From NCBI GenBank assembly GCA_902560855.1, contig CACENJ010000003.1, positions 16,180 to 80,179 on the forward strand: a stretch of DNA of 64,000 bases, read 5' to 3'. The notes beneath the pieces were generated by a model, which did not search any database, was not told where the DNA came from, and saw only the letters and a list, made by a program, of their open reading frames with translations. Shown here one piece after another: positions 1 through 61,606 of the stretch. A program made the translations under genes and the position numbers. How positions within the stretch are numbered: the first letter of the stretch is position 1; each line of letters begins with the position of its first letter. This DNA is from an uncultured Pelagibacteraceae bacterium (GTDB taxonomy: Bacteria; Pseudomonadota; Alphaproteobacteria; Pelagibacterales; Pelagibacteraceae).

Positions 1-511
1 TTAAATCCCATGTTCCACTAGCACATACTTGGGCAGCGTTAGCGTGTGGATGTCTCCACCAATCTAAATAAAATCCTGGAGCATAATCTGCTGCCTCAAC
101 AGGTATTACAGCTCTAAATTTATTTGGATGACGTAACGCTAATTGTAAAGCAACATTTCCACCAAAAGACGAGCCCATAAAAATTGGTTTTTGTAACCCC
201 AAAGCATCACATAACTTTACAATAAAATTACAGTAATGTTCTGCTTTTAACTTGTATTCTTCTTTCCACCATTCTTTATTATGTGGTGGATCTGATTTTC
301 CATGTCTTGGAAGATCATAAGCAATTACATTGTAATCTTTAGTAATTTCTGGGTCTTCAAGCAAACCTCTCCATTGATGATTATGACATCCAGCAGTATG
401 TTGACAAATTAAAGGTATCCCTTTTCCATTTTGAAGATAAAAAACTTTGTATTCACAATCGTCAACCTCAATTGTAACATAACGTCCTATAACATCATGA
501 TGTTTTACCAT
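1..511 (-). CDS. alpha/beta hydrolase (3' end runs off window)
   Basis: Not in the ORF track. Hand translation from ATG at 511 (RBS AAGGAG upstream) gives MVKHHDVIGRY...CQHTAG...AYDLPRHGKS...FMGSSFGGNVA, i.e. the DLPxHGxS motif and a G-S-S-F-G nucleophile elbow. Frame is open to the window edge. Confidence 0.85.
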   Translation of the reverse strand, partial: MVKHHDVIGRYVTIEVDDCEYKVFYLQNGKGIPLICQHTAGCHNHQWRGLLEDPEITKDYNVIAYDLPRHGKSDPPHNKEWWKEEYKLKAEHYCNFIVKLCDALGLQKPIFMGSSFGGNVALQLALRHPNKFRAVIPVEAADYAPGFYLDWWRHPHANAAQVCASGTWDL

Positions 512-542
512 TTTAAAACTCCTTTTAATTCAAAATTTTTCA

Positions 543-932
543 TTAAACTGGCACTCCTGTTTTTCTTAATAGTTCAAACTGAACTGTGAAATTTCTAAGA
601 TTTTTCATTAAAACCAAATGATTGCCTTCAATTTTTAAGTCTTTTAAGAAACTTGCTGACCATATGCCATGGTACATTGGTTTTGGCATTGGTTGGCCAA
701 ATTCTCTCCAAGTTTTTGCTGATGCTCTTAAAGCAAAGTCGTATGGATCTAAAGGCGAAGGACTTGTATTGATATTTTTTACCTTGCCATCGTGCATTTC
801 AATAATTACTTTTGCACTTTCCATATCAAACATAAATGAGCATGTATAATATTTTGCCATAGCTTTAATAGTGTCGTCACTATTAGTAGCTTCTTCATAC
901 TTTTTTGCCCAGTTATCTAAACCACTACTCAT
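543..932 (-). CDS. SCP2 (sterol carrier protein 2)-like lipid-binding protein
   Basis: 129 aa. Pattern 'IIEMHDGKV...DFALRASAKTW...LKIEGNHLVLMKN' resembles SCP2-fold proteins. Co-oriented in the rhodopsin-flotillin operon. Confidence 0.55.
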   Translation of the reverse strand: MSSGLDNWAKKYEEATNSDDTIKAMAKYYTCSFMFDMESAKVIIEMHDGKVKNINTSPSPLDPYDFALRASAKTWREFGQPMPKPMYHGIWSASFLKDLKIEGNHLVLMKNLRNFTVQFELLRKTGVPV

Positions 933-947
933 AATATTTTACTTTCG

Positions 948-2915
948 TTACTTAGAACCTTTGGTTCCTTTAGTTGGATCATTATCGAAGTTCATATGAT
1001 AATCTTTTTTCGGATTATCATAGTCACCAAGAATATTTCTGATGTTGCTTATTTCTCCAGGATTCATTCCAATTTCTTTAAGCAAACTATCTAGAAATGG
1101 TTGGTGTGCTCTATAACGTAATGCTGAACTAACAACGTTATCAGCTAGATTACCACTTCTTCCAGATCCTCCAGTAGTAGAAGATTCTCCACCACCTGAA
1201 CCAGAGGTTCCACTAAATCCAGGTAAACCATTAACATCAACAATTTTTATATCTCCGATGTTTGCCATTGGTTTAACACTTTCTCTAATGATTGCTTCAA
1301 TTTTTTCAGCAAGTTTTAATCTTAAAGCGCTTCTTCTGCTGGCATCGCTTCTTAAATTCTCAGCAGCATTTAATGCTTCCTTACCGGCTGCATCTATTTC
1401 ATATCTTAGTTTTGCTGCCATGGTTTCATATCTATCTTGCTCAGCTTTCGAAGCTGCAGAAATAACATCAACTTTTTTAATACCCTGAGCTTTTTCAACA
1501 TATCTTGCTGAGTTGGCTTTCTCTTCAGCTTCAATTGCTTTCGCTCTTGTAGATTCTTCTTCAGCTTTAGATTTCAAAACTTGTTTTGATTTATTTATTA
1601 TTTCAAGATTTTTTTGATGTTCTTCTATGCTTAATCTCTTTGCTTTTTCTATATCAAGAAGTCTAACTTCTCTTTCTGTCTCAATTTTATGAGAATCTAT
1701 ATTTTTTTGCTGAGCAATTTTAGCATTTTTAATTTCTTGTTCAGAGATTATTTGTGCTTCTTCTGCATCTTTTTGTCTTTCAGATTGTTCTTTAATGATG
1801 GTAGCCTTTTCTTGTGCACGTTTCATGTCAACAAGTCTCTGTTTTTCAAGTCGCGCATATTCACTTTCTTTGTCCAAATTTAAGATTTTAACTTCTGTTT
1901 CTAAATCTTTTTGTCTTATTTCGTAAGCAGCATTTTTTTCTAACTCATTTTGCTCTTTTCTACGTTTTTCTATTTCCTCAATTAATCTTGTTTCTGTTAA
2001 TTTTCTTTCAACTTCGATAACCTGATTTTGAGAAATTTTTGCAACTTCAATTTGTTCTTGGCTTCTTATCTCTGCCTCTTCAGCTTCACGTTCTTTTTCT
2101 GCTTTTTGTTTTACAGTTTCAGTTCTTTCGTTAGCTTTTTGAATAGCTACTTCTCTTTCTTGTTGATATCTAGAAAACTCTTCATTTTTTTTTATTTCTA
2201 ATTCTTTTTGGATAGTTTCTAAATTTTTATTTTCAATTGAAATTTTTGTATCCTGCGTTATATCGTTTCTTTTTTTCTTTCTAGACTCAATTTGTTCAGT
2301 TAATTGTGTCAAACCTTGTGAGTCAAAAGTATTTGCAGGATTAAACTGTTCAATTGGAGTTTGATCTAAAGATATTATTGAAACAGTTTCTAATGCTAGA
2401 CCTGTATGACCAATGGATGCATCTGCTATCTTTGTGACTTCTTTTACAAATTGTCCTCTATTTTCTTGAATCTCATCTAGTGTCATTTTTGCAGCAACTT
2501 CCCCAAGTGCATCTGCAAAACGTCCCTGAACAACTTCTCTTAAATGTTCAGGATCAAGAGTTCTGTTACCTAAAGTTTGAGCTGCAGTTGATACTGCTCT
2601 TTCGTCAGGCGGAACTTTTGTAAAAAATTCTGTTACAAGCTCAGCTCTCATTCTATCTTTTGTTATTAAAGATTTATCTCCGCCCCTTTTAATTGTTATG
2701 CTTAATGTTCGCATTCCAACCTGTGTAATATTGTGAATTATTGGTAAGACAAATGCACCGCCAGATATAACAACCTTTTCTCCAAGCATTCCAGTACGTA
2801 CAAATGAAACTTCTTTTGATGATCTTCTGTATAGCCAATGCAATAAATAAACTATAATTGCTATCGCCAATGCTAATAAAATTATTGCTGCTATTATATC
2901 TGCTCCTCTTGTCAT
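948..2915 (-). CDS. flotillin (SPFH/Band 7 family, YqiK/FloT-like)
   Basis: N-terminal TM helix, SPFH domain (FVRTG..GEKVV..GGAFVLPIIH; LITKDRMR), long E/K/A/Q coiled coil, C-terminal Flot region (IIRESVKPMANIGDIKIV). RBS AGGAGG. Confidence 0.93.
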   Translation of the reverse strand: MTRGADIIAAIILLALAIAIIVYLLHWLYRRSSKEVSFVRTGMLGEKVVISGGAFVLPIIHNITQVGMRTLSITIKRGGDKSLITKDRMRAELVTEFFTKVPPDERAVSTAAQTLGNRTLDPEHLREVVQGRFADALGEVAAKMTLDEIQENRGQFVKEVTKIADASIGHTGLALETVSIISLDQTPIEQFNPANTFDSQGLTQLTEQIESRKKKRNDITQDTKISIENKNLETIQKELEIKKNEEFSRYQQEREVAIQKANERTETVKQKAEKEREAEEAEIRSQEQIEVAKISQNQVIEVERKLTETRLIEEIEKRRKEQNELEKNAAYEIRQKDLETEVKILNLDKESEYARLEKQRLVDMKRAQEKATIIKEQSERQKDAEEAQIISEQEIKNAKIAQQKNIDSHKIETEREVRLLDIEKAKRLSIEEHQKNLEIINKSKQVLKSKAEEESTRAKAIEAEEKANSARYVEKAQGIKKVDVISAASKAEQDRYETMAAKLRYEIDAAGKEALNAAENLRSDASRRSALRLKLAEKIEAIIRESVKPMANIGDIKIVDVNGLPGFSGTSGSGGGESSTTGGSGRSGNLADNVVSSALRYRAHQPFLDSLLKEIGMNPGEISNIRNILGDYDNPKKDYHMNFDNDPTKGTKGSK

Positions 2916-2933
2916 AAATTATACCTCCTTAAT

Positions 2934-3632
2934 TTAAGCCTCTTTCCTTGTATCTTCTAAAGCCGCACTATAAATTATCATTCCAAAAATAATTTTATTC
3001 AATATATCGGCTAAGTTGTAAATTATGTTTAAGCTGTTGATGTTTGCTCCTCCAGCTAAGTGCTCTATAAAATATCCAATATGATAAATCGAAAAACCTA
3101 TTGTAATGATTAATCTATTTGCAAAAAATGCCATTTGAACACTTTCATTGCCACACGATGCGTTTTTCCTTCCCGTATCTCCCATGTAAAGCTCGCCAAT
3201 GATATAAAGCCAGCCAACTATACCAACCAGGAATCCTAGTGTAACACTCATATATCCATATGCTCCTAGAAGCTGAGCTATTACCCAAACAAGTGTTCCG
3301 ACAAGCAAACGCCAAAACATTCCTCTTTTAACGTCAGTAACTGACTTTAACATTACATAAAAAGTCAATATTGTAAGTGGAAAGGTTAAAATCCAATCAA
3401 TATATCTTAGCGCGGTTGGCGCTTGACCATTTAAAACCCATAAATTTTTTGCATAGAAGTAGTGTATAGAGGACATTAGAGCTATTACGCCTACAAGATT
3501 CATGGCCGTACCCCATCTGTTCGACAAACGACCTCTTTCAAGAAAGAAAAATATTGCTGCACCTATCATTGCAACAGAAATTAACCAAAAAGATCCCCCA
3601 ACAACGTCTTGTGGAAGCAATAATTTGTTCAT
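2934..3632 (-). CDS. flotillin-associated microbial rhodopsin (FArhodopsin-type proteorhodopsin paralog, DTT motif)
   Basis: 7-TM pattern. Helix C RYIDWILTFPLTILTF (D79/T83/T90), helix G YNLADILNKIIFG (D209, K213), His57. Directly upstream of flotillin with an 18-bp gap. Confidence 0.92.
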   Translation of the reverse strand: MNKLLLPQDVVGGSFWLISVAMIGAAIFFFLERGRLSNRWGTAMNLVGVIALMSSIHYFYAKNLWVLNGQAPTALRYIDWILTFPLTILTFYVMLKSVTDVKRGMFWRLLVGTLVWVIAQLLGAYGYMSVTLGFLVGIVGWLYIIGELYMGDTGRKNASCGNESVQMAFFANRLIITIGFSIYHIGYFIEHLAGGANINSLNIIYNLADILNKIIFGMIIYSAALEDTRKEA

Positions 3633-3950
3633 GAGTCCCTTTTCACTCCCTATTTAAAATTATTCTAAATAATTTAGATATTTAAATTCAAATTTTGTCA
3701 CAAATCAATCTAAAATGTCTTAATTTTTTATATATATATTTTTTAGAAGTAGATTCTAAAAAAATTATTTTAAATCTAACGAGAAAAAAATAAATTTTTT
3801 TATAAAATACAATCCATACTAGATTTATTTTTATTTCAATTAATACTAGAATTTTTTCTAACTTTTTTAATTTTTCAAAGAAATTAAATTGACTGTTTAT
3901 AATCCTAAAATTTTATTTCGTTGGCCATTTATTAATTATAATATGTGTCA

Positions 3951-4589
3951 ATGCTATCCAAAGTAATAACTATTTCGCAGCAAAAAGGTGGCAGTGGAAA
4001 AACAACGCTAGCCGTTCATTTAGCTCTTGCTTTCATAAAGTATCATAATTTAAAAGTTGCTGTCATTGATACAGACCCTCAAGGAAGTTTGGGTAAATGG
4101 TATATGATCAGAACAGAAAAAAAAGTTTCGAACGATAATTTAACTTTTAAAACTGCTAGTTTGTGGGGAGCTCAATATGAGTCAAAAGCATTAAAAAAAG
4201 ATCATGATATTGTAATTATAGATACGCCTCCAAAAATAGAATCTGATGCTCGACCATCTATTGAGTCTGCAGATTTAGTTTTAATTCCTGTAGCGGCATC
4301 TCATGTTGATTTTTGGGCAACAGGTGCGATTGTTGAAATAGCAAAAAAAGCAAATAAAAAAATTTTAATACAAATTAATAGATCAAGCCAAAGATCAAAA
4401 CTTATTACCAAAACAAATGAATTTATAAAAAGTTTAAATCTTTCTGCAACTAAAACAATAATTGGAAATCGTCAAATTTTTGCCGCCTCTATGGGTGAAG
4501 GCAAAACTGCTGTTGAAAAACAAAAGAAGAGTAACGCTGTTGAAGAAATTAAGCAGCTCTCTGAACAAATCTTGTCAGAAGTAAAATAA
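3951..4589 (+). CDS. ParA/MinD-family ATPase (orphan, short ParA type)
   Basis: Deviant Walker A QQKGGSGKTT, IDTDPQGS, IIDTPP. No parB adjacent. ATG at 3951 preferred over GTG at 3945. Confidence 0.88.
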   Translation: MLSKVITISQQKGGSGKTTLAVHLALAFIKYHNLKVAVIDTDPQGSLGKWYMIRTEKKVSNDNLTFKTASLWGAQYESKALKKDHDIVIIDTPPKIESDARPSIESADLVLIPVAASHVDFWATGAIVEIAKKANKKILIQINRSSQRSKLITKTNEFIKSLNLSATKTIIGNRQIFAASMGEGKTAVEKQKKSNAVEEIKQLSEQILSEVK

Positions 4590-4591
4590 TA

Positions 4592-5059
4592 ATGTCTGTT
4601 CTGTTAACTACAAAAAAAATAATTAAAGAATGGACTGATTATAACAACCATATGAATTTATCATATTATATTTTAGTATTTGATATGGGAGCAGAAGTAT
4701 TTTTATCAAAATTTAATATGGGAGAACATTCCGCCAAAAATACAAAAAAAAGTACAATGGTTGTTGAAACTCATACTACTTATAATAACGAAGTAAAAGA
4801 AGGTGATGAAGTTGAAGTTTTTCTTTCTCATTTTGATCATGACAAAAAAAGGTTACATTACAAATTAGAAATGTATGAAAAAGGTAAAAATATACTATCT
4901 GCAAGTACTGAAGTCTTGTCTTTATATATAGATTTAAGTCTAAGAAAAGTTACAGAATTTGAAGACGAAAAAGCTGAAATTATGAATGAATTTATAAGTA
5001 AAAATAAATCTAATTTTAAATCTGAAAGTTTACATTTCTCAAAAAAACTAAAAAAATAA
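4592..5059 (+). CDS. hotdog-fold thioesterase (4HBT-like; related to the carnitine-pathway thioesterase domain)
   Basis: EWTDYNNHMN motif; ETHTTYNNEVKEGD; DKKRLH. Confidence 0.8.
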   Translation: MSVLLTTKKIIKEWTDYNNHMNLSYYILVFDMGAEVFLSKFNMGEHSAKNTKKSTMVVETHTTYNNEVKEGDEVEVFLSHFDHDKKRLHYKLEMYEKGKNILSASTEVLSLYIDLSLRKVTEFEDEKAEIMNEFISKNKSNFKSESLHFSKKLKK

Positions 5060-5115
5060 TTAATAAAAAAATTAAAATTGATGACAAAAATATACCTCAG
5101 ATGTAATGTTTGATT

Positions 5116-5949
5116 ATGGAAATTAAATTATTATCAGGAGCCTTAGGTGCTGAAATTAAAGGTGTTGATCTTAAAGATACCTCTGATGAAAATTTTAAAA
5201 AAATTAACGATCTACTTTTAGAGCATAAAGTTATTTTTTTTAGAGGTCAAACAATTACTTCCGAAGAACAAATAGCTCTAGCAGAAAAATTTGGTCCCTT
5301 AGAAACACATGCTTACGTTAAAGGTTTAAAAAAGTATCCTGAAATAGTTAGAATAATAAAAGCTGAAGATGAACAAAACCAATGGGGAGAAAATTGGCAT
5401 AGCGATGTTAGTTATAATGTCAAACCTACAAAAGCTGTAATATTAAAATCATTAAAAATACCTCCGGTAGGTGGAGATACATGTTTTGCAAATATGGAAC
5501 TTGCTTGGGAAACTTTAGATGAAGAAATAAAAAATAAAATTAGAGATAAAAAAGCAGTGCATAGTTCTTTAGGTGCAGAATTTTTTTTAGATAGTTATAA
5601 AAAAATGGAAGGCAATAAAAAAAAAAATTATAATGAATATTCAAATGAACATCCAATAGTAAGAACACACCCGGAAACAGGTAAAAAAATACTATTTGTA
5701 AATTGGACATATACCAAAAAAATTATTGGTTTAGATAAAGAAGAAAGCGATAAAGTTTTAAATAAAATTTTTGAACATCAAGCTAGGCTAGAATTAACTT
5801 GTAGATTCACTTGGACAGAAAATACAGTATGTATATGGGATAACAGAAGTGTTATTCATTTTGCAATTGCTGATTTTTACCCTGGAAGAGGACTTGGGTA
5901 TGAAAGAGTTATGGATCGAATTGCAATAGAAGGGGATGCGCCAGTTTAA
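5116..5949 (+). CDS. TauD/TfdA-family Fe(II)/2-oxoglutarate dioxygenase
   Basis: LGAEIKGVDL, WHSDVSY (HxD), GGDTCFANM, HPIVRTHPETG, WDNRSVIH. Confidence 0.9.
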   Translation: MEIKLLSGALGAEIKGVDLKDTSDENFKKINDLLLEHKVIFFRGQTITSEEQIALAEKFGPLETHAYVKGLKKYPEIVRIIKAEDEQNQWGENWHSDVSYNVKPTKAVILKSLKIPPVGGDTCFANMELAWETLDEEIKNKIRDKKAVHSSLGAEFFLDSYKKMEGNKKKNYNEYSNEHPIVRTHPETGKKILFVNWTYTKKIIGLDKEESDKVLNKIFEHQARLELTCRFTWTENTVCIWDNRSVIHFAIADFYPGRGLGYERVMDRIAIEGDAPV

Positions 5950-6489
5950 TTGAAATCAATAATAAAAAAAATAATTAAAAATTATAAAACTAATAAATCA
6001 CTCTACATAGGTGAGAAAGTGACTATGACTGAACATATGATTCAATCGGCAATGTTAGCTGAAAAAAATAAGTGCTCTTCTAGCTTGATATGCGCTTCTT
6101 TACTTCATGATTATGGTCACTTTATTTTGGATAATCCAGATGAGTTAGTAAATAAAAAAAAAGATGGAAAACATGAAGATATTGCTTATCTATATCTCAA
6201 AAAATATTTTAAAAAAAATGTTGTAGAACCAATAAAAATTCATGTTAAAGCAAAAAGATATTTGGCGAGAAATGAAAAATATTACAAAATTCTTTCACAA
6301 GCTTCTAAAGCTAGTTTGCATTTGCAAGGTGGAGTTATGAATGATGAAGAAGCTGAAAAATTTGAAAAAGAAAAATTTTTCGATGATGTAATTAAATTGA
6401 GAAAATTTGATGAAGCTGCAAAAAAAATAGGTATCAAAATGAAAGATATTAATGATTATAAAAATTTATTAAATTCAAATTTATTATGA
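5950..6489 (+). CDS. PhnZ/TmpB-like HD-domain di-iron oxygenase
   Basis: YIGEKVTMTEHMIQSA, LLHDYGH, KHE, HVKAKRYL, SLHLQGG, LRKFDEAAK are the PhnZ-clade HD motifs. TTG start abuts the upstream stop. Confidence 0.8.
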   Translation: MKSIIKKIIKNYKTNKSLYIGEKVTMTEHMIQSAMLAEKNKCSSSLICASLLHDYGHFILDNPDELVNKKKDGKHEDIAYLYLKKYFKKNVVEPIKIHVKAKRYLARNEKYYKILSQASKASLHLQGGVMNDEEAEKFEKEKFFDDVIKLRKFDEAAKKIGIKMKDINDYKNLLNSNLL

Positions 6490-8066
6490 AATTTGATTAC
6501 GTGATTATTGGAGCGGGTTCAGCTGGATGTGTGCTTTCAAATAGACTATCTGAAAATACAAATAACAATGTAGCTGTCTTTGAAGCTGGAGGACCAAGTG
6601 ATATTTGGAAAGTTAAAATGCCTCTTGCTCTACTCTATACTATGCACGACCCAAAATATAATTGGAAATATTATTCTGAACCAGAACCACATTTAAATAA
6701 CAGAAGATTATTTTGCCCAAGAGGAAAAATGATTGGGGGATGCTCTGCGCACAATGGAATGGTTTTTGTAAGGGGAAATAGAGACGATTATCAACGTTGG
6801 GAAAATTTTGGACTTAAATCTTGGTCTTACAATAAAATTCTTCCTTATTTTAAAAAAATTGAATCATGGTCAGGTGGAGAAAATCAATACAGAGGTTCTT
6901 TTGGTTTGCTCCCTGTTGATCAATCAAAGAATGACAATCCTTTATTTAATGCTTTTTTAGGAGCGGCTTCAGAAGCAGGACATAAAATTAATCCTGATAT
7001 GAATGGAGAATATCAAGAAGGTTTTGGTATGTTTGATACAACAATTCATAATGGTGAGAGGGCAAGTGTAGCAAAATATTATTTAAATCCTATCAAAAAT
7101 AGGAAAAATCTAAATATTTTTTCCAATTCATTTGTGGAAAAAATAATTTTTGACGGGAAAAAAGCTGTTGGCATTGAAGTAAAAATAAAAAATAAAATTG
7201 AAAAAGTTTTTGCAGAAAAAGAATTAATATTAAGTGGTGGCTCAATTAATTCTCCTCAATTATTAATGATTTCGGGTATTGGAGATGCAAATCATTTAAA
7301 AGAAAAAGGAATAACTGTTATTAATGATTTAAAAGGTGTAGGAAAAAATCTTCAAGATCATTTAGAAACATACATTATGCAAGAGTGTAAAACTCCCGAT
7401 ACCCTTTATACTTATACAAAATTAATTCCAAAAGTGCTCGCTGGTATACAGTGGTTTTTATCTAAATCAGGCCCTTGCTCGAAATCATATTTGGAAGCTG
7501 GAGGATTTGCCAAATCTTCACCTCAAAGAAAAATGCCAAATATACAATTTCATTTTTTTCCATCATTTGTAATTAATCATGGTTTGGTTAGTCCAAGTTC
7601 TCATGGTTATCAGTTGCACGCAAGTCCAAATCATCCAAAAAGTAGAGGATTGATTACTCTTAATTCATCTGATCCATATGATTATCCAAAAATATTATTT
7701 AACTATTTAGAAGATGAAGATGATTTAAGACAAACAAGAGAATGTATTCAAGTTGCAAGAAAAATCTTATCAAAACCTTCTTTAGTTAAACATGCTGGAA
7801 AAGAAATTGGACCTGGGTCTGATAAACAAAGTGACGAAGAATTAAATGAATATATTAGATCTAATGCAGAAACTGCTTATCATCCGTGTGGAACTTGCAA
7901 AATGGGTGTGGATGATATGGCTGTTGTTGATGAAAATTTAAGAGTTAAGGGAGTAAAAAATTTAAGAGTTGTTGATGCTTCTGTAATGCCTGAAATTCCT
8001 AGCGCAAATTTAAATGCACCAACTCTTATGATTGCTGAAAAAGCCTCTGATCTTATTTTAAACTAA
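6486..8066 (+). CDS. betA: GMC oxidoreductase, choline dehydrogenase-like
   Basis: GAGSAG FAD-binding motif, PRGKMIGGCSAHNGMVFVRG, VGKNLQDHLE, YHPCGTCKMG, NLNAPTLMIAEK. ATGA overlap with the HD gene. Confidence 0.75.
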   Translation: MKFDYVIIGAGSAGCVLSNRLSENTNNNVAVFEAGGPSDIWKVKMPLALLYTMHDPKYNWKYYSEPEPHLNNRRLFCPRGKMIGGCSAHNGMVFVRGNRDDYQRWENFGLKSWSYNKILPYFKKIESWSGGENQYRGSFGLLPVDQSKNDNPLFNAFLGAASEAGHKINPDMNGEYQEGFGMFDTTIHNGERASVAKYYLNPIKNRKNLNIFSNSFVEKIIFDGKKAVGIEVKIKNKIEKVFAEKELILSGGSINSPQLLMISGIGDANHLKEKGITVINDLKGVGKNLQDHLETYIMQECKTPDTLYTYTKLIPKVLAGIQWFLSKSGPCSKSYLEAGGFAKSSPQRKMPNIQFHFFPSFVINHGLVSPSSHGYQLHASPNHPKSRGLITLNSSDPYDYPKILFNYLEDEDDLRQTRECIQVARKILSKPSLVKHAGKEIGPGSDKQSDEELNEYIRSNAETAYHPCGTCKMGVDDMAVVDENLRVKGVKNLRVVDASVMPEIPSANLNAPTLMIAEKASDLILN

Positions 8067-12155: not shown

Positions 12156-13127
12156 ATGAGTAAAAATATAGTTCCCACTATTAACATTGCTTCAATAGTT
12201 AAAAATGGTTTTAATTCTTCAAAATCAAATAAAATTATAAATGAAATTAAAAAAGCTTGTATTAATATCGGCTTTTTTCAAGTTACAGGCCACGGAATAA
12301 ATCAAAAAAATATTAATAATATTTGCAAAGTAGGAAATAAATTTTTTAATTCTCCTAAAAAAAATAAAAGAAAACTTTCACCTAAAAAATGGAATAATAA
12401 AAATAAAAATATATATAGGGGATATTTTCCAAATGATGTTAATGGAAAAGAAGGTTTAGACATTGGTGACCCCAAAGTAACTAAAAAATATGCATCAGAT
12501 ATAAATATAAAATATATTGAATATTTAAATCTCAATAAATCTCTTGATGAAAGATCAATTAAAATATTAACAGAATATTTCAATAAAATTTTCATTCTAG
12601 GACAAACATTATTTAAGAGTGTAATTAAAATTTATAAAGATGATTTAAAAAAGTCTGATCTTATTTTTTCAAGGCTTAAAACTTTAAGCACATTAAGATT
12701 TAACTATTATCCTAACCAAAAAAGGCCTGTGGAAATTTCCAAGCAAGATGGTGTTGCTCTAGGATGTGAAACTCACGTTGATAGTGGAATATTTACAATT
12801 CTTTACCAAGATAAAAAAGGAGGTTTACAAGTTCAAAATAGAATAAACAAAAAATGGTATGATGTTCCTTTTAACAAAAATGCTTTTATAGTTAACACTG
12901 GATTAGCACTCCAATATTTAAGTAATAATAAATTTAAAGCAACAAATCATAGAGTCCTGTGGAACAAAACGAAAAGAATGTCTATTCCCTTTTTCTTTGA
13001 GCCTTCTTATGATTTTAAAATGAATCCTAAATTTTTTAACAAGTCTAATAAAAAAAATAATAAAATAATTAATTATGAAGTTTTTTTAAAAAAATCCTTA
13101 AAAAAATTCATAGAGTACAGACGTTAG
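12156..13127 (+). CDS. isopenicillin-N-synthase-family Fe(II)/2OG oxygenase
   Basis: GFFQVTGHGI, LRFNYYP, HVDSG (HxD), GGLQV, NHRV, RMS motif. Confidence 0.88.
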   Translation: MSKNIVPTINIASIVKNGFNSSKSNKIINEIKKACINIGFFQVTGHGINQKNINNICKVGNKFFNSPKKNKRKLSPKKWNNKNKNIYRGYFPNDVNGKEGLDIGDPKVTKKYASDINIKYIEYLNLNKSLDERSIKILTEYFNKIFILGQTLFKSVIKIYKDDLKKSDLIFSRLKTLSTLRFNYYPNQKRPVEISKQDGVALGCETHVDSGIFTILYQDKKGGLQVQNRINKKWYDVPFNKNAFIVNTGLALQYLSNNKFKATNHRVLWNKTKRMSIPFFFEPSYDFKMNPKFFNKSNKKNNKIINYEVFLKKSLKKFIEYRR

Positions 13128-59641: not shown

Positions 59642-60511
59642 TTAATCTGATTTTGGTTTTATATTTCCAAAAAATTTAAAGAATTCGCTGTCTGGAGATA
59701 AAACTAAAGATGTGTCGCCACCAATTAAAGCTTTTTCATAAGCCTGCATTGCTCTGTAAAAAGCAAAAAATTCAGGATCTCTACCAAAAGCTTCGGCAAA
59801 AATTTTATTTCTTTGACCATCTCCTTCACCTTTCATAATTTCAGAATTTTTATTTGCTTCCGCTAGTATTACCGCCACTTCTTTGTCTGCAGTAGAAGTA
59901 ATAGTTACTGCCATTTCTGCACCTTTTGCTCTAAATTCTTTTGCTTCTCTTTCCCTTTCAGTCTGCATTCTTCTATATATTGCTTCACTGTTAGCTTGAG
60001 GCAAATCTGCTCTTTTAATTCTCACATCTACTATTTTAATACCAAACTTTTCAGCTTCATTATTTACACCATCTTGTATTAATGACATTTGTTTGGTTCT
60101 GTCTTCAGATAATAATGTCTGTAATCTCTGTGTTCCTAAAACACTTCTTATTCTTGAGTTTATAATTGTTGCCAACCTTGATCTTGCAACTCTTTCGTTT
60201 CCAACAGAAATATAAAATTTTAGTGGATCAATAATTTGAAATCTTGCAAAAGCATCTACTATTAATCTTTTTTGATCTGAAGCAATGACTTCTTCTGGTG
60301 GAGCATCTAAATTTAAAATTCTTTTATCTAAAAAAACTACATTCTGAATAAACGGAATTTTAAAATTTAAACCGGGTTTTGTAATAATTCTTTTTGGATC
60401 ACCAAACTGTAATACGATTGCTTGATTAATTTCTTTTACTACAAAAATTGAAAAGAAAGCTGTTAAAGCTAAAACAAAAATGATTGGTAATAAAATTCTT
60501 CCTGCTTTCAT
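59642..60511 (-). CDS. hflC: FtsH modulator HflC
   Basis: SPFH domain; DQKRLIVDAFAR, RIKRADLP, RMQTERERE, DPEFFAFYR. Confidence 0.96.
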   Translation of the reverse strand: MKAGRILLPIIFVLALTAFFSIFVVKEINQAIVLQFGDPKRIITKPGLNFKIPFIQNVVFLDKRILNLDAPPEEVIASDQKRLIVDAFARFQIIDPLKFYISVGNERVARSRLATIINSRIRSVLGTQRLQTLLSEDRTKQMSLIQDGVNNEAEKFGIKIVDVRIKRADLPQANSEAIYRRMQTEREREAKEFRAKGAEMAVTITSTADKEVAVILAEANKNSEIMKGEGDGQRNKIFAEAFGRDPEFFAFYRAMQAYEKALIGGDTSLVLSPDSEFFKFFGNIKPKSD

Positions 60512-61606
60512 TTAATTTGTCCTTTTCTTAAGTTCTGGCAATGGCAGATAAGGAACAACTCCTGATCCTGCATTTTTGTCTATAATTACTTTGTCTATAT
60601 CTGCTAAAACTTTTTCCATAGTTTCTAAATACATTCTTTCTTGTGTTACTTCTTTTGCTTTTGCATACTCAGTATATATTGCTAAAAATCTACTTGCTTC
60701 ACCTTCGGCTCTTGCAACAACTTCTTTCTTATAAGCTTCAGCAGCTTGCAAAATTTTTGCAGCCTCTCCACGTGCTCTTGGTATTACATCGTTAGCATAA
60801 GCTTGTGCTTCATTTTTAGATCTCTCCATATCTGCTCTTGCGGCTTGAACATCTCTGAACGCATCTATAACTTGATCTGGCGGGTCAGCTTTTTGGGTTT
60901 GTACTTGTGTTACCTGAATTCCACTATTGTATTCATCTAAAATATTTTGAATAATTTCTTGAGTATCTATTTCTATTCTAGATCTACCTTCTGTTAAAAT
61001 TGGTTGAATATCGCTTCTTGCTATAACTTCTCTCATTGCTGTTTCCGCAGCTGCTTTAACAGTTCCTTGAGGGTCTTGAATTTTAAATAAAAAAAATCCT
61101 GCATCTTTAATTACCCAAAAAACAGAAAAATCAATGTTTACAATATTTTCATCACCAGTTAGCATTAAACTTTCTTCTGGAACATCTGCAACTCCGCCTG
61201 AAGAAAAACCACTATCTGCTCCAGATCTAAAACCAACATCCATTCTATTTACTTTTGTTACTTTTGGTGTAAGTACTGATTCAATTGGGTATGGAAAATG
61301 ATAATTTAATCCTGGTTGAGTTGTTTTAACAAATTTTCCAAATCTTAATACTACTCCTTGTTCATCTGGCAATACTCTATATAATCCACTCGCTACCCAA
61401 ACCACTGCCAAAATAACTAAAGCTAAAATTATTGGTTTGCCACCTTTTGCCCCTCTACCAGGCATAAATTTATTTATAGTGCTTTGTATTTTTCTTATAA
61501 TTTCGTCTATGTCAGGTGGAGTTGGACCTCTTCCTGAACCATTTCCTCCTCCTCCTGGAGGAGCTCCCCATGGACTACCGCCTCTGCTTTTAAAATCATC
61601 AACCAT
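60512..61606 (-). CDS. hflK: FtsH modulator HflK
   Basis: PWG..PPDIDE N-terminus, MLTGDENIV, DAFRDVQAA, ERMYLETME. Confidence 0.96.
   Translation of the reverse strand: MVDDFKSRGGSPWGAPPGGGGNGSGRGPTPPDIDEIIRKIQSTINKFMPGRGAKGGKPIILALVILAVVWVASGLYRVLPDEQGVVLRFGKFVKTTQPGLNYHFPYPIESVLTPKVTKVNRMDVGFRSGADSGFSSGGVADVPEESLMLTGDENIVNIDFSVFWVIKDAGFFLFKIQDPQGTVKAAAETAMREVIARSDIQPILTEGRSRIEIDTQEIIQNILDEYNSGIQVTQVQTQKADPPDQVIDAFRDVQAARADMERSKNEAQAYANDVIPRARGEAAKILQAAEAYKKEVVARAEGEASRFLAIYTEYAKAKEVTQERMYLETMEKVLADIDKVIIDKNAGSGVVPYLPLPELKKRTN

Follow-up and report, generated by a model that had tools for sequence, protein, structure and literature searches.

Flotillin-associated rhodopsins (FArhodopsins, here also FAR) were named as a family by Haro-Moreno et al. 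(2023, mSystems, PMC10308929), in whose description they co-occur with a DTE proteorhodopsin and carry the alternative motifs DTT, DTL or DNI instead of DTE. In the Pelagibacterales the FArhodopsin has a DTT motif, a Thr at the colour-tuning site and about 23 N-terminal residues fewer, and its gene heads an island of roughly 26 kb, with a flotillin gene of 1,977 bp following after 16 nt (PMC10308929); co-transcription of the rhodopsin and flotillin genes has also been published. The SAR11 rhodopsins of this 'DTT-T' type were first seen by Olson et al. (2018, PMC5864233), and when expressed in E. coli they gave neither pigment nor pumping, even with an added proteorhodopsin leader. A structure is available for PsFAR from Pseudothioglobus (PDB 9r21; Kovalev et al. 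2025). From the flotillin side, the closest described systems are E. coli yqiJK and S. aureus nfeD-floA (PMC11222466), in which a co-oriented membrane-protein gene lies directly upstream of a gene for a flotillin with Band_7 and Flot domains, separated from it by a short spacer. Here we describe a rhodopsin–flotillin gene pair at positions 948 to 3632 of a 64,000-nucleotide stretch from an uncultured Pelagibacteraceae (SAR11) bacterium (the window, G000:C3:16180-80179, from a genome of 1.05 Mb that is 75% complete and has about 30% G+C).

The pair is already known, in that its family, motif, synteny and structure are all published; the window holds a typical example of the SAR11 form described in the literature and introduces no new kind of gene, and what this work contributes is comparison. 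FArhodopsins occur abundantly in bacteria that are among the most numerous in the ocean, and any clue to what they do is useful. What is new here is that the rhodopsin gene occupies the gene position of YqiJ/NfeD, that the associated flotillins form a separate clade with a conserved membrane anchor, and that the constraint on the FArhodopsin is far above that on the pump. Taken together, gene position, anchor conservation and constraint direct experiments to a structural partnership with flotillin that does not depend on light, rather than to photosensing; the pair is probably a light-blind membrane-scaffold module and not a light sensor.

A Pelagibacterales-type flotillin-associated rhodopsin

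The rhodopsin gene (2934..3632, minus strand) is an open reading frame (ORF) of 232 aa with a DTT motif, a Thr at the colour-tuning site and lysine K213 retained, and an 18-nt spacer (2916..2933, minus strand) separates it from the flotillin gene (948..2915, minus strand), whose product has 655 aa. Within the spacer the Shine-Dalgarno sequence AAGGAGG stands 8 nt ahead of the flotillin ATG, and there is no terminator; a scan of the minus strand found no terminator-like site among the rhodopsin gene, the flotillin gene and the gene that follows. The first-pass annotation of the window had read these two genes as one operon and had named a set of functional residues, all of which holds up, with S54, H57, R76, D79, T83, T87, T90, D209 and K213 confirmed by alignment in a numbering that is identical, without gaps, to that of PDB 9r21 and 4jq6.

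Bac_rhodopsin is the only Pfam family that matches the rhodopsin (E 2.4e-26). Its closest sequence match in the PDB is 9r21, entitled "flotillin-associated rhodopsin" (E 3.6e-88, 58% identity, ungapped over residues 1-229), followed by the blue proteorhodopsin 4jq6 (E 2.4e-58), and an AlphaFold model from 38 relatives, with seven helices and a predicted local distance difference test score (pLDDT) of 90.9, has 9r21, 9r23 and 9r22 as its top fold matches (TM-score 0.95 at 58% identity for 9r21 and 9r23). A tree made up of FAR-type sequences and SAR11 proteorhodopsins, without named reference sequences, contains a branch supported at 98 by the Shimodaira–Hasegawa-like approximate likelihood ratio test (SH-aLRT) that parts 38 FAR-type rows, including that of the window, from 8 SAR11 proteorhodopsins. 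The protein thus branches apart from the SAR11 proteorhodopsins and not inside them, and with the 9r21 match this bears out its earlier placement as a flotillin-associated paralog of proteorhodopsin.

A search of the same genome found both a canonical DTE proteorhodopsin and blh. The proteorhodopsin, on contig C4 (G000:C4:52657-53328), has 254 aa with a signal peptide, a DTE motif and a Gln at the tuning site; blh lies on contig C16. The N-terminus of the window protein is 22 residues shorter than that of this proteorhodopsin, to which it is 45% identical, in agreement with the earlier remark that it has no signal peptide of the proteorhodopsin type. It shares with the proteorhodopsin pumps (PDB 7b03, 4jq6, 4kly) the fold and the Arg-Asp-Thr...Asp-Lys core, but differs from them in lacking the donor Glu and the signal peptide, in its filled pocket and in its linkage to flotillin. 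T90 occupies the site of the donor carboxylate (Glu108 in green proteorhodopsin) and the pocket is not open, and a role as a pump is unlikely, as the earlier reading of the missing donor had held.

The sequence has DTT (D79, T83, T90) in place of DTE, together with the Thr tuning residue (T87). Like the published Pelagibacterales cluster (PMC10308929), it lacks a leader of about 23 aa, is followed on the same strand by a flotillin gene of about 1.97 kb, and heads an island with genes for a sterol-carrier-like protein, a hydrolase, an N,N-dimethylformamidase (DMFase), a sodium:solute symporter (SSF), an iron alcohol dehydrogenase (Fe-ADH), biotin carboxylases and PxpA, with the DTE proteorhodopsin elsewhere; the spacer is 18 nt as against 16 nt, and nothing substantive differs. 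Because the motif, the Thr tuning residue, the absent leader, the short spacer and the island content all match that description (PMC10308929), the window protein is almost certainly a FArhodopsin of the Pelagibacterales DTT/Thr type.

Conservation of the rhodopsin–flotillin pair

The distribution of the pair was searched in 201 genomes of the family. With the rhodopsin as query, copies at 96-100% identity occur in 4 of them, representing three genera, and every other match is a proteorhodopsin at 47% identity or less; the window protein shares 96-97% identity with its counterparts from three further SAR11 genomes and with metagenomic clusters of very large size. A search of 36 additional genomes from the genus to which the window belongs, almost all of them complete, found no FAR copy. 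The flotillin gene follows the rhodopsin gene directly in all three of the other SAR11 carriers, and a Flot domain occurs in only five of the 201 genomes, four of which are the FAR genomes, while in the fifth the contig ends within the flotillin gene. Beyond these close copies, eight of eight metagenomic loci with rhodopsins 52-72% identical to ours have a flotillin gene 47-78 nt downstream, and the order rhodopsin-then-flotillin on the same strand holds in 12 related loci; the pairing is therefore kept in related genomes and loci, as the reading in the first-pass annotation requires. Near-identical flotillins bear the source labels "Pelagibacterales bacterium" and "Candidatus Pelagibacter sp." In one FAR-carrying SAR11 genome (G051:C1:13440-15420) the flotillin gene is interrupted near residue 579 by a TGA or a frameshift, which an assembly error or a broken gene may explain.

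The retinal pocket and light response

Cryo-electron microscopy and mutagenesis of PsFAR have shown that H84 and E120 fill the retinal site, and that only the H84V/E120G double mutant binds retinal (10.1101/2025.04.29.651185). The window protein has S54, R76, D79, D209 and K213 in common with PsFAR and is likewise bulky at positions 84 and 120, with F84 for H84 and Q120 for E120 as judged from the ungapped sequence alignment to 9r21. It differs further in having H57 for F57, in having W116, F180 and H184 where PsFAR has M, W and P, and in having T90 and T87 where PsFAR has residues of the M/L and Q/L types. W116, F180 and H184 are the residues of the SAR11 subclade. At the five pocket positions F84, W116, Q120, F180 and H184, the proteorhodopsin of the same genome has V, M, G, W and P. 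Of 113 homologues, 111 have H, F, R or Q at position 84 and 106 have E or Q at position 120. Positions 180 and 184 correspond to a Trp and a Pro that line the retinal in pumps (W182 and P186 in bacteriorhodopsin). From these residues it appears very probable that the window rhodopsin binds no retinal.

A more distant relative bears on the same point. In an alphaproteobacterium from another family, with a genome of 3.8 Mb (L072/L088), the product of a rhodopsin-fold gene lacks the lysine and has R213, G79 and P76 at the otherwise conserved positions. At the second of these loci (L088, G471:C33:155863-170752) the lysine-less rhodopsin gene (6104-6838, minus strand) is directly upstream of a FAR-type flotillin gene (4399-6057, minus strand), with SSF and Fe-ADH genes downstream and an ATP-binding cassette (ABC) transporter, a metallo-beta-lactamase-fold gene and an alpha/beta hydrolase gene upstream, so that its gene set is that of the SAR11 island. 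Since a flotillin-linked relative without the lysine keeps the operon, the conserved job of the pair needs no lysine.

Selective constraint on the FArhodopsin

For pairs of genomes, the ratio of non-synonymous to synonymous substitution (dN/dS) of the FArhodopsin is 0.015-0.05 at dS of 0.4-1.6; between different SAR11 genera dS is 1.0-1.6 and dN 0.02-0.03, giving dN/dS of about 0.02. For these genome pairs the proteorhodopsins, which may not be strict orthologues, have dN/dS of 0.12-0.24, dN of 0.21-0.35 and 54-69% amino-acid identity. In terms of non-synonymous change, the constraint on the FArhodopsin is about ten times that on proteorhodopsin in the same genomes. The rhodopsin is under strong purifying selection and is clearly not a relic in decay. 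Almost its whole surface is constrained, as would be expected of a protein that makes many contacts more than of a pump standing by itself. With synonymous sites near saturation (dS 1.0-1.6), we reject recent horizontal transfer as the sole cause of the 96-97% identity between genera.

Gene position and phylogeny of the flotillin

The flotillin consists of an N-terminal anchor, an SPFH/Band_7 domain, a long Glu/Lys-rich coiled coil, a Flot domain and a Gly/Ser-rich tail, with Pfam matches to Band_7 at residues 40-182 (7.6e-10) and to Flot at residues 487-617 (1.5e-30). It aligns over its full length with 27 proteobacterial flotillins and has the YqiK/FloT architecture. The only other SPFH proteins found in the genome are HflK and HflC, encoded at about 59921-61375 of the window on the minus strand.

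A sample of 400 further Pseudomonadota genomes was searched for the Flot domain, and the gene upstream was read at 20 loci. Directly upstream of flotillin there is a gene with YqiJ_N and YqiJ_OB domains at 14 of the 20, across a gap of 4-98 nt; a PEP-hydrolase-like or UPF0261 gene takes this place at four loci, a rhodopsin-fold gene at one, and nothing recognisable at the last. The FArhodopsin gene is in the gene position that in most proteobacterial flotillin loci is held by a YqiJ/NfeD-type gene. The resemblance does not go beyond gene position: the upstream protein is a seven-helix opsin in place of the YqiJ_N and OB-fold protein of the YqiJ-YqiK and NfeD operons, and it has neither the YqiJ_N and OB-fold domains (PF21001 and PF07290) nor NfeD (PF01957). 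NfeD (PF01957) and YqiJ_OB (PF07290) were also not found elsewhere in this 75%-complete genome.

Unlike the flotillins of the YqiJ-YqiK and NfeD operons, that of the window is a member of a clade of its own, in which the anchor hardly varies. In an unrooted tree built without the anchor columns, nine FAR-linked flotillins form one clade (SH-aLRT 97) and group with the flotillins linked to PEP-hydrolase or UPF0261 genes (SH-aLRT 99), apart from the YqiJ-linked ones (99). A direct displacement of YqiJ by the rhodopsin was considered but does not follow from this tree, given that the sister flotillins follow PEP-hydrolase/UPF0261 genes and the tree is unrooted. The first-pass annotation had placed the rhodopsin in the NfeD slot; as a statement of gene position this stands, whereas a direct replacement of NfeD is not established, the nearest sampled flotillins being those linked to PEP-hydrolase and UPF0261 genes. 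A scaffold partner in the NfeD position, which was also proposed there, is plausible and finds partial support here.

In a flotillin lineage on the FAR-linked side of the tree (SH-aLRT 99 for the two together), represented by loci L067, L071, L073 and L074, the flotillin genes are preceded by PEP-hydrolase-like (PF09370) genes, UPF0261 genes or both, not by YqiJ, and some of the flotillins have about 970 aa. We know of no description of this pairing.

The flotillin membrane anchor

The membrane anchor is encoded at 2835..2906 on the minus strand (codons 4-27) and has the sequence GADIIAxIILxALAIAIxVYLLHW, which is nearly invariant among FAR-linked flotillins. Over residues 4-27 the nine FAR-linked flotillins are 80% identical, as compared with 29% among 14 YqiJ-linked flotillins, while the SPFH divergence of the two groups is equal (0.68 versus 0.67), as is that of their coiled coils (0.52 versus 0.51). 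An anchor more conserved than the SPFH domain behind it suggests, at the level of sequence comparison, a sequence-specific contact within the membrane.

Models for the function of the pair

The FArhodopsin and its dedicated flotillin are encoded by the first two genes of the published FAR island, a co-directional operon whose further genes encode an SCP2-like protein, an alpha/beta hydrolase, N,N-dimethylformamidase-like subunits, a sodium:solute symporter, an iron alcohol dehydrogenase, a metallo-beta-lactamase-fold hydrolase and BioY. We propose that the rhodopsin is a retinal-free, light-blind seven-helix protein, probably pentameric like PsFAR, and that it acts as the membrane-embedded partner or client of the FAR flotillin lineage from the YqiJ/NfeD gene position; the two together would form a microdomain of the membrane in which the island's transporters and enzymes are organised. 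To this proposal as a whole, a retinal-free opsin partnered with flotillin in a microdomain module, we assign a probability of roughly 60%. For a direct partnership of rhodopsin and flotillin taken by itself, the sequence comparisons leave the odds about even. Still more tentatively, we suggest that a retinal-free opsin may have taken over the YqiJ/NfeD partner role for one flotillin lineage, docking (probably as a pentamer) through the anchor helix GADIIAxIILxALAIAIxVYLLHW and nucleating or filling a flotillin cage that corrals the SSF and ABC transporters; if true, no client-adaptor pair would have been defined before for a flotillin of the proteobacteria, and the rhodopsin fold would have a task unrelated to light.

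Several considerations weigh against this proposal. Contact between a FArhodopsin and a flotillin is a proposal, and those who solved the PsFAR structure saw nothing obvious in it that would be an adaptation to such contact (10.1101/2025.04.29.651185). The flotillin anchor is still about 70% identical at the locus where the linked rhodopsin is only 29% identical (L072), and because of this the partner of the anchor need not be the rhodopsin; anchor conservation may reflect flotillin self-assembly, lipids or another partner. The marine SAR11 form keeps K213, D79, D209, R76 and H57, which is unexpected if the lysine has no role, and FAR-carrying genomes also carry blh and a proteorhodopsin. Misfolding in E. 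coli could explain why the DTT-T proteins bound no retinal there, and the rhodopsin may bind another chromophore or ligand.

The most probable of the alternatives, although we regard it as unlikely, is that the seven-helix protein works independently of light, receiving or carrying a small hydrophobic ligand, either a lipid or an island substrate that might be passed on by the SCP2-like protein, and gates or regulates the neighbouring SSF and ABC transporters. The rhodopsin is always found within an island of transporters and hydrolases, a conserved SCP2-like gene lies two genes downstream, and the pocket is remodelled, not collapsed, PsFAR having water-filled cavities; moreover a retinal-free proteoopsin can bind decanoate, according to the title of PDB entry 8cnk. 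The ligand is postulated, however, the cavities of PsFAR are small and fragmented, and the SCP2 assignment comes from an unaligned look-alike search only.

Slightly less probable again is the hypothesis of Haro-Moreno et al. that FArhodopsin and the proton-pumping proteorhodopsin form mixed pentamers in flotillin rafts, tuning or boosting pumping in dim light. It would account for the constant co-occurrence of a DTE proteorhodopsin, which here is that of contig C4, and PsFAR and PsPR do form similar pentamers, but the contacts between protomers differ between the two, and the cluster is also present with the lysine-less rhodopsin in the 3.8-Mb alphaproteobacterium. A FArhodopsin conserved at 96-97% beside partner proteorhodopsins at 54-69% is also a poor fit to a co-evolving interface.

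The light-responsive, slow-cycling retinal sensor of the first-pass annotation, which would switch flotillin microdomains by light, agrees with the retained lysine, counterions and H57, with the blh and proteorhodopsin of the genome and with a published depth distribution tied to the lower photic zone, but we consider it the most doubtful reading of all in view of the bulky F84 and Q120 at both experimentally decisive pocket positions and the three further pocket positions that are changed, the SAR11 DTT-T proteins without retinal or pigment (PMC5864233), the lysine-less relatives that retain the same flotillin operon, and an island in which no transducer gene is present.

The FAR island and other features of the region

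The third gene of the operon (543..932, minus strand) encodes a conserved protein of 129 aa that is probably SCP2-like, as judged from an unaligned look-alike search of the Atlas with a language model. It has no Pfam match even at E 0.1, and its structure model, from an alignment of 6 rows, has a pLDDT of 39.6. The fourth gene, for an alpha/beta hydrolase of 284 aa at full length, has its 5' part at 2..511 (minus strand) and crosses the left edge of the window into the rest of the island.

The island continues in the 16 kb to the left of the window on the same contig (G000:C3), with genes for the hydrolase, DMFase alpha and beta subunits, a 741-aa SSF transporter, an Fe-ADH, a metallo-beta-lactamase-fold protein and BioY, and on the opposite strand a carboxyltransferase/biotin carboxylase/LamB-YcsF set with an ABC permease. 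In the eight metagenomic loci, too, SSF, DMFase or both come after the flotillin gene, in most cases along with the hydrolase and the 129-aa gene, and seven of the eight have ABC-transporter genes immediately upstream of the FAR genes. The genes for the metallo-beta-lactamase-fold hydrolase and the Fe-ADH adjoin one another in the island (L004:8538-10553, left of the window). Two small ORFs of 139 and 122 aa flank the DMFase large-subunit gene (L004:15391-15810 and 12643-13011, also left of the window). PF26354 (DMF_alpha) is present in the corresponding ORFs of related loci, so that there may be two paralogs of the small subunit in the island.

On the other side of the operon, an AT-rich spacer of 312 nt (3633..3944) extends to a divergent ParA/MipZ-like gene. 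It matches no Rfam family, and an Rfam scan of bases 1-5000 returned nothing above chance. Candidate promoter hexamers TTGAAT-18-TAGAAT are present at 3691-3662 on the minus strand, in a scan of the region whose total of 16 sites, against 15.3 expected, is at chance level. Both the rhodopsin and the flotillin gene are covered at 90% identity or more by contigs from three marine metatranscriptome runs of three studies, a weak sign of expression because these are contigs only, from RNA libraries that can contain DNA. Contigs from the RNA libraries of two studies cover the rhodopsin gene to about 3666 and none extends beyond, a drop that divergence of the spacer may explain.

The second rhodopsin of another FAR-carrying SAR11 genome (L087, G033:C2:56400-57800, minus strand), KYIEWLITMPLLAIQFY, has E-T-Q and a Leu at the tuning site as against D-T-E, and is thus a 'canonical' proteorhodopsin with an unusual acceptor and donor; the TGA flagged at this locus seems to precede the start codon.

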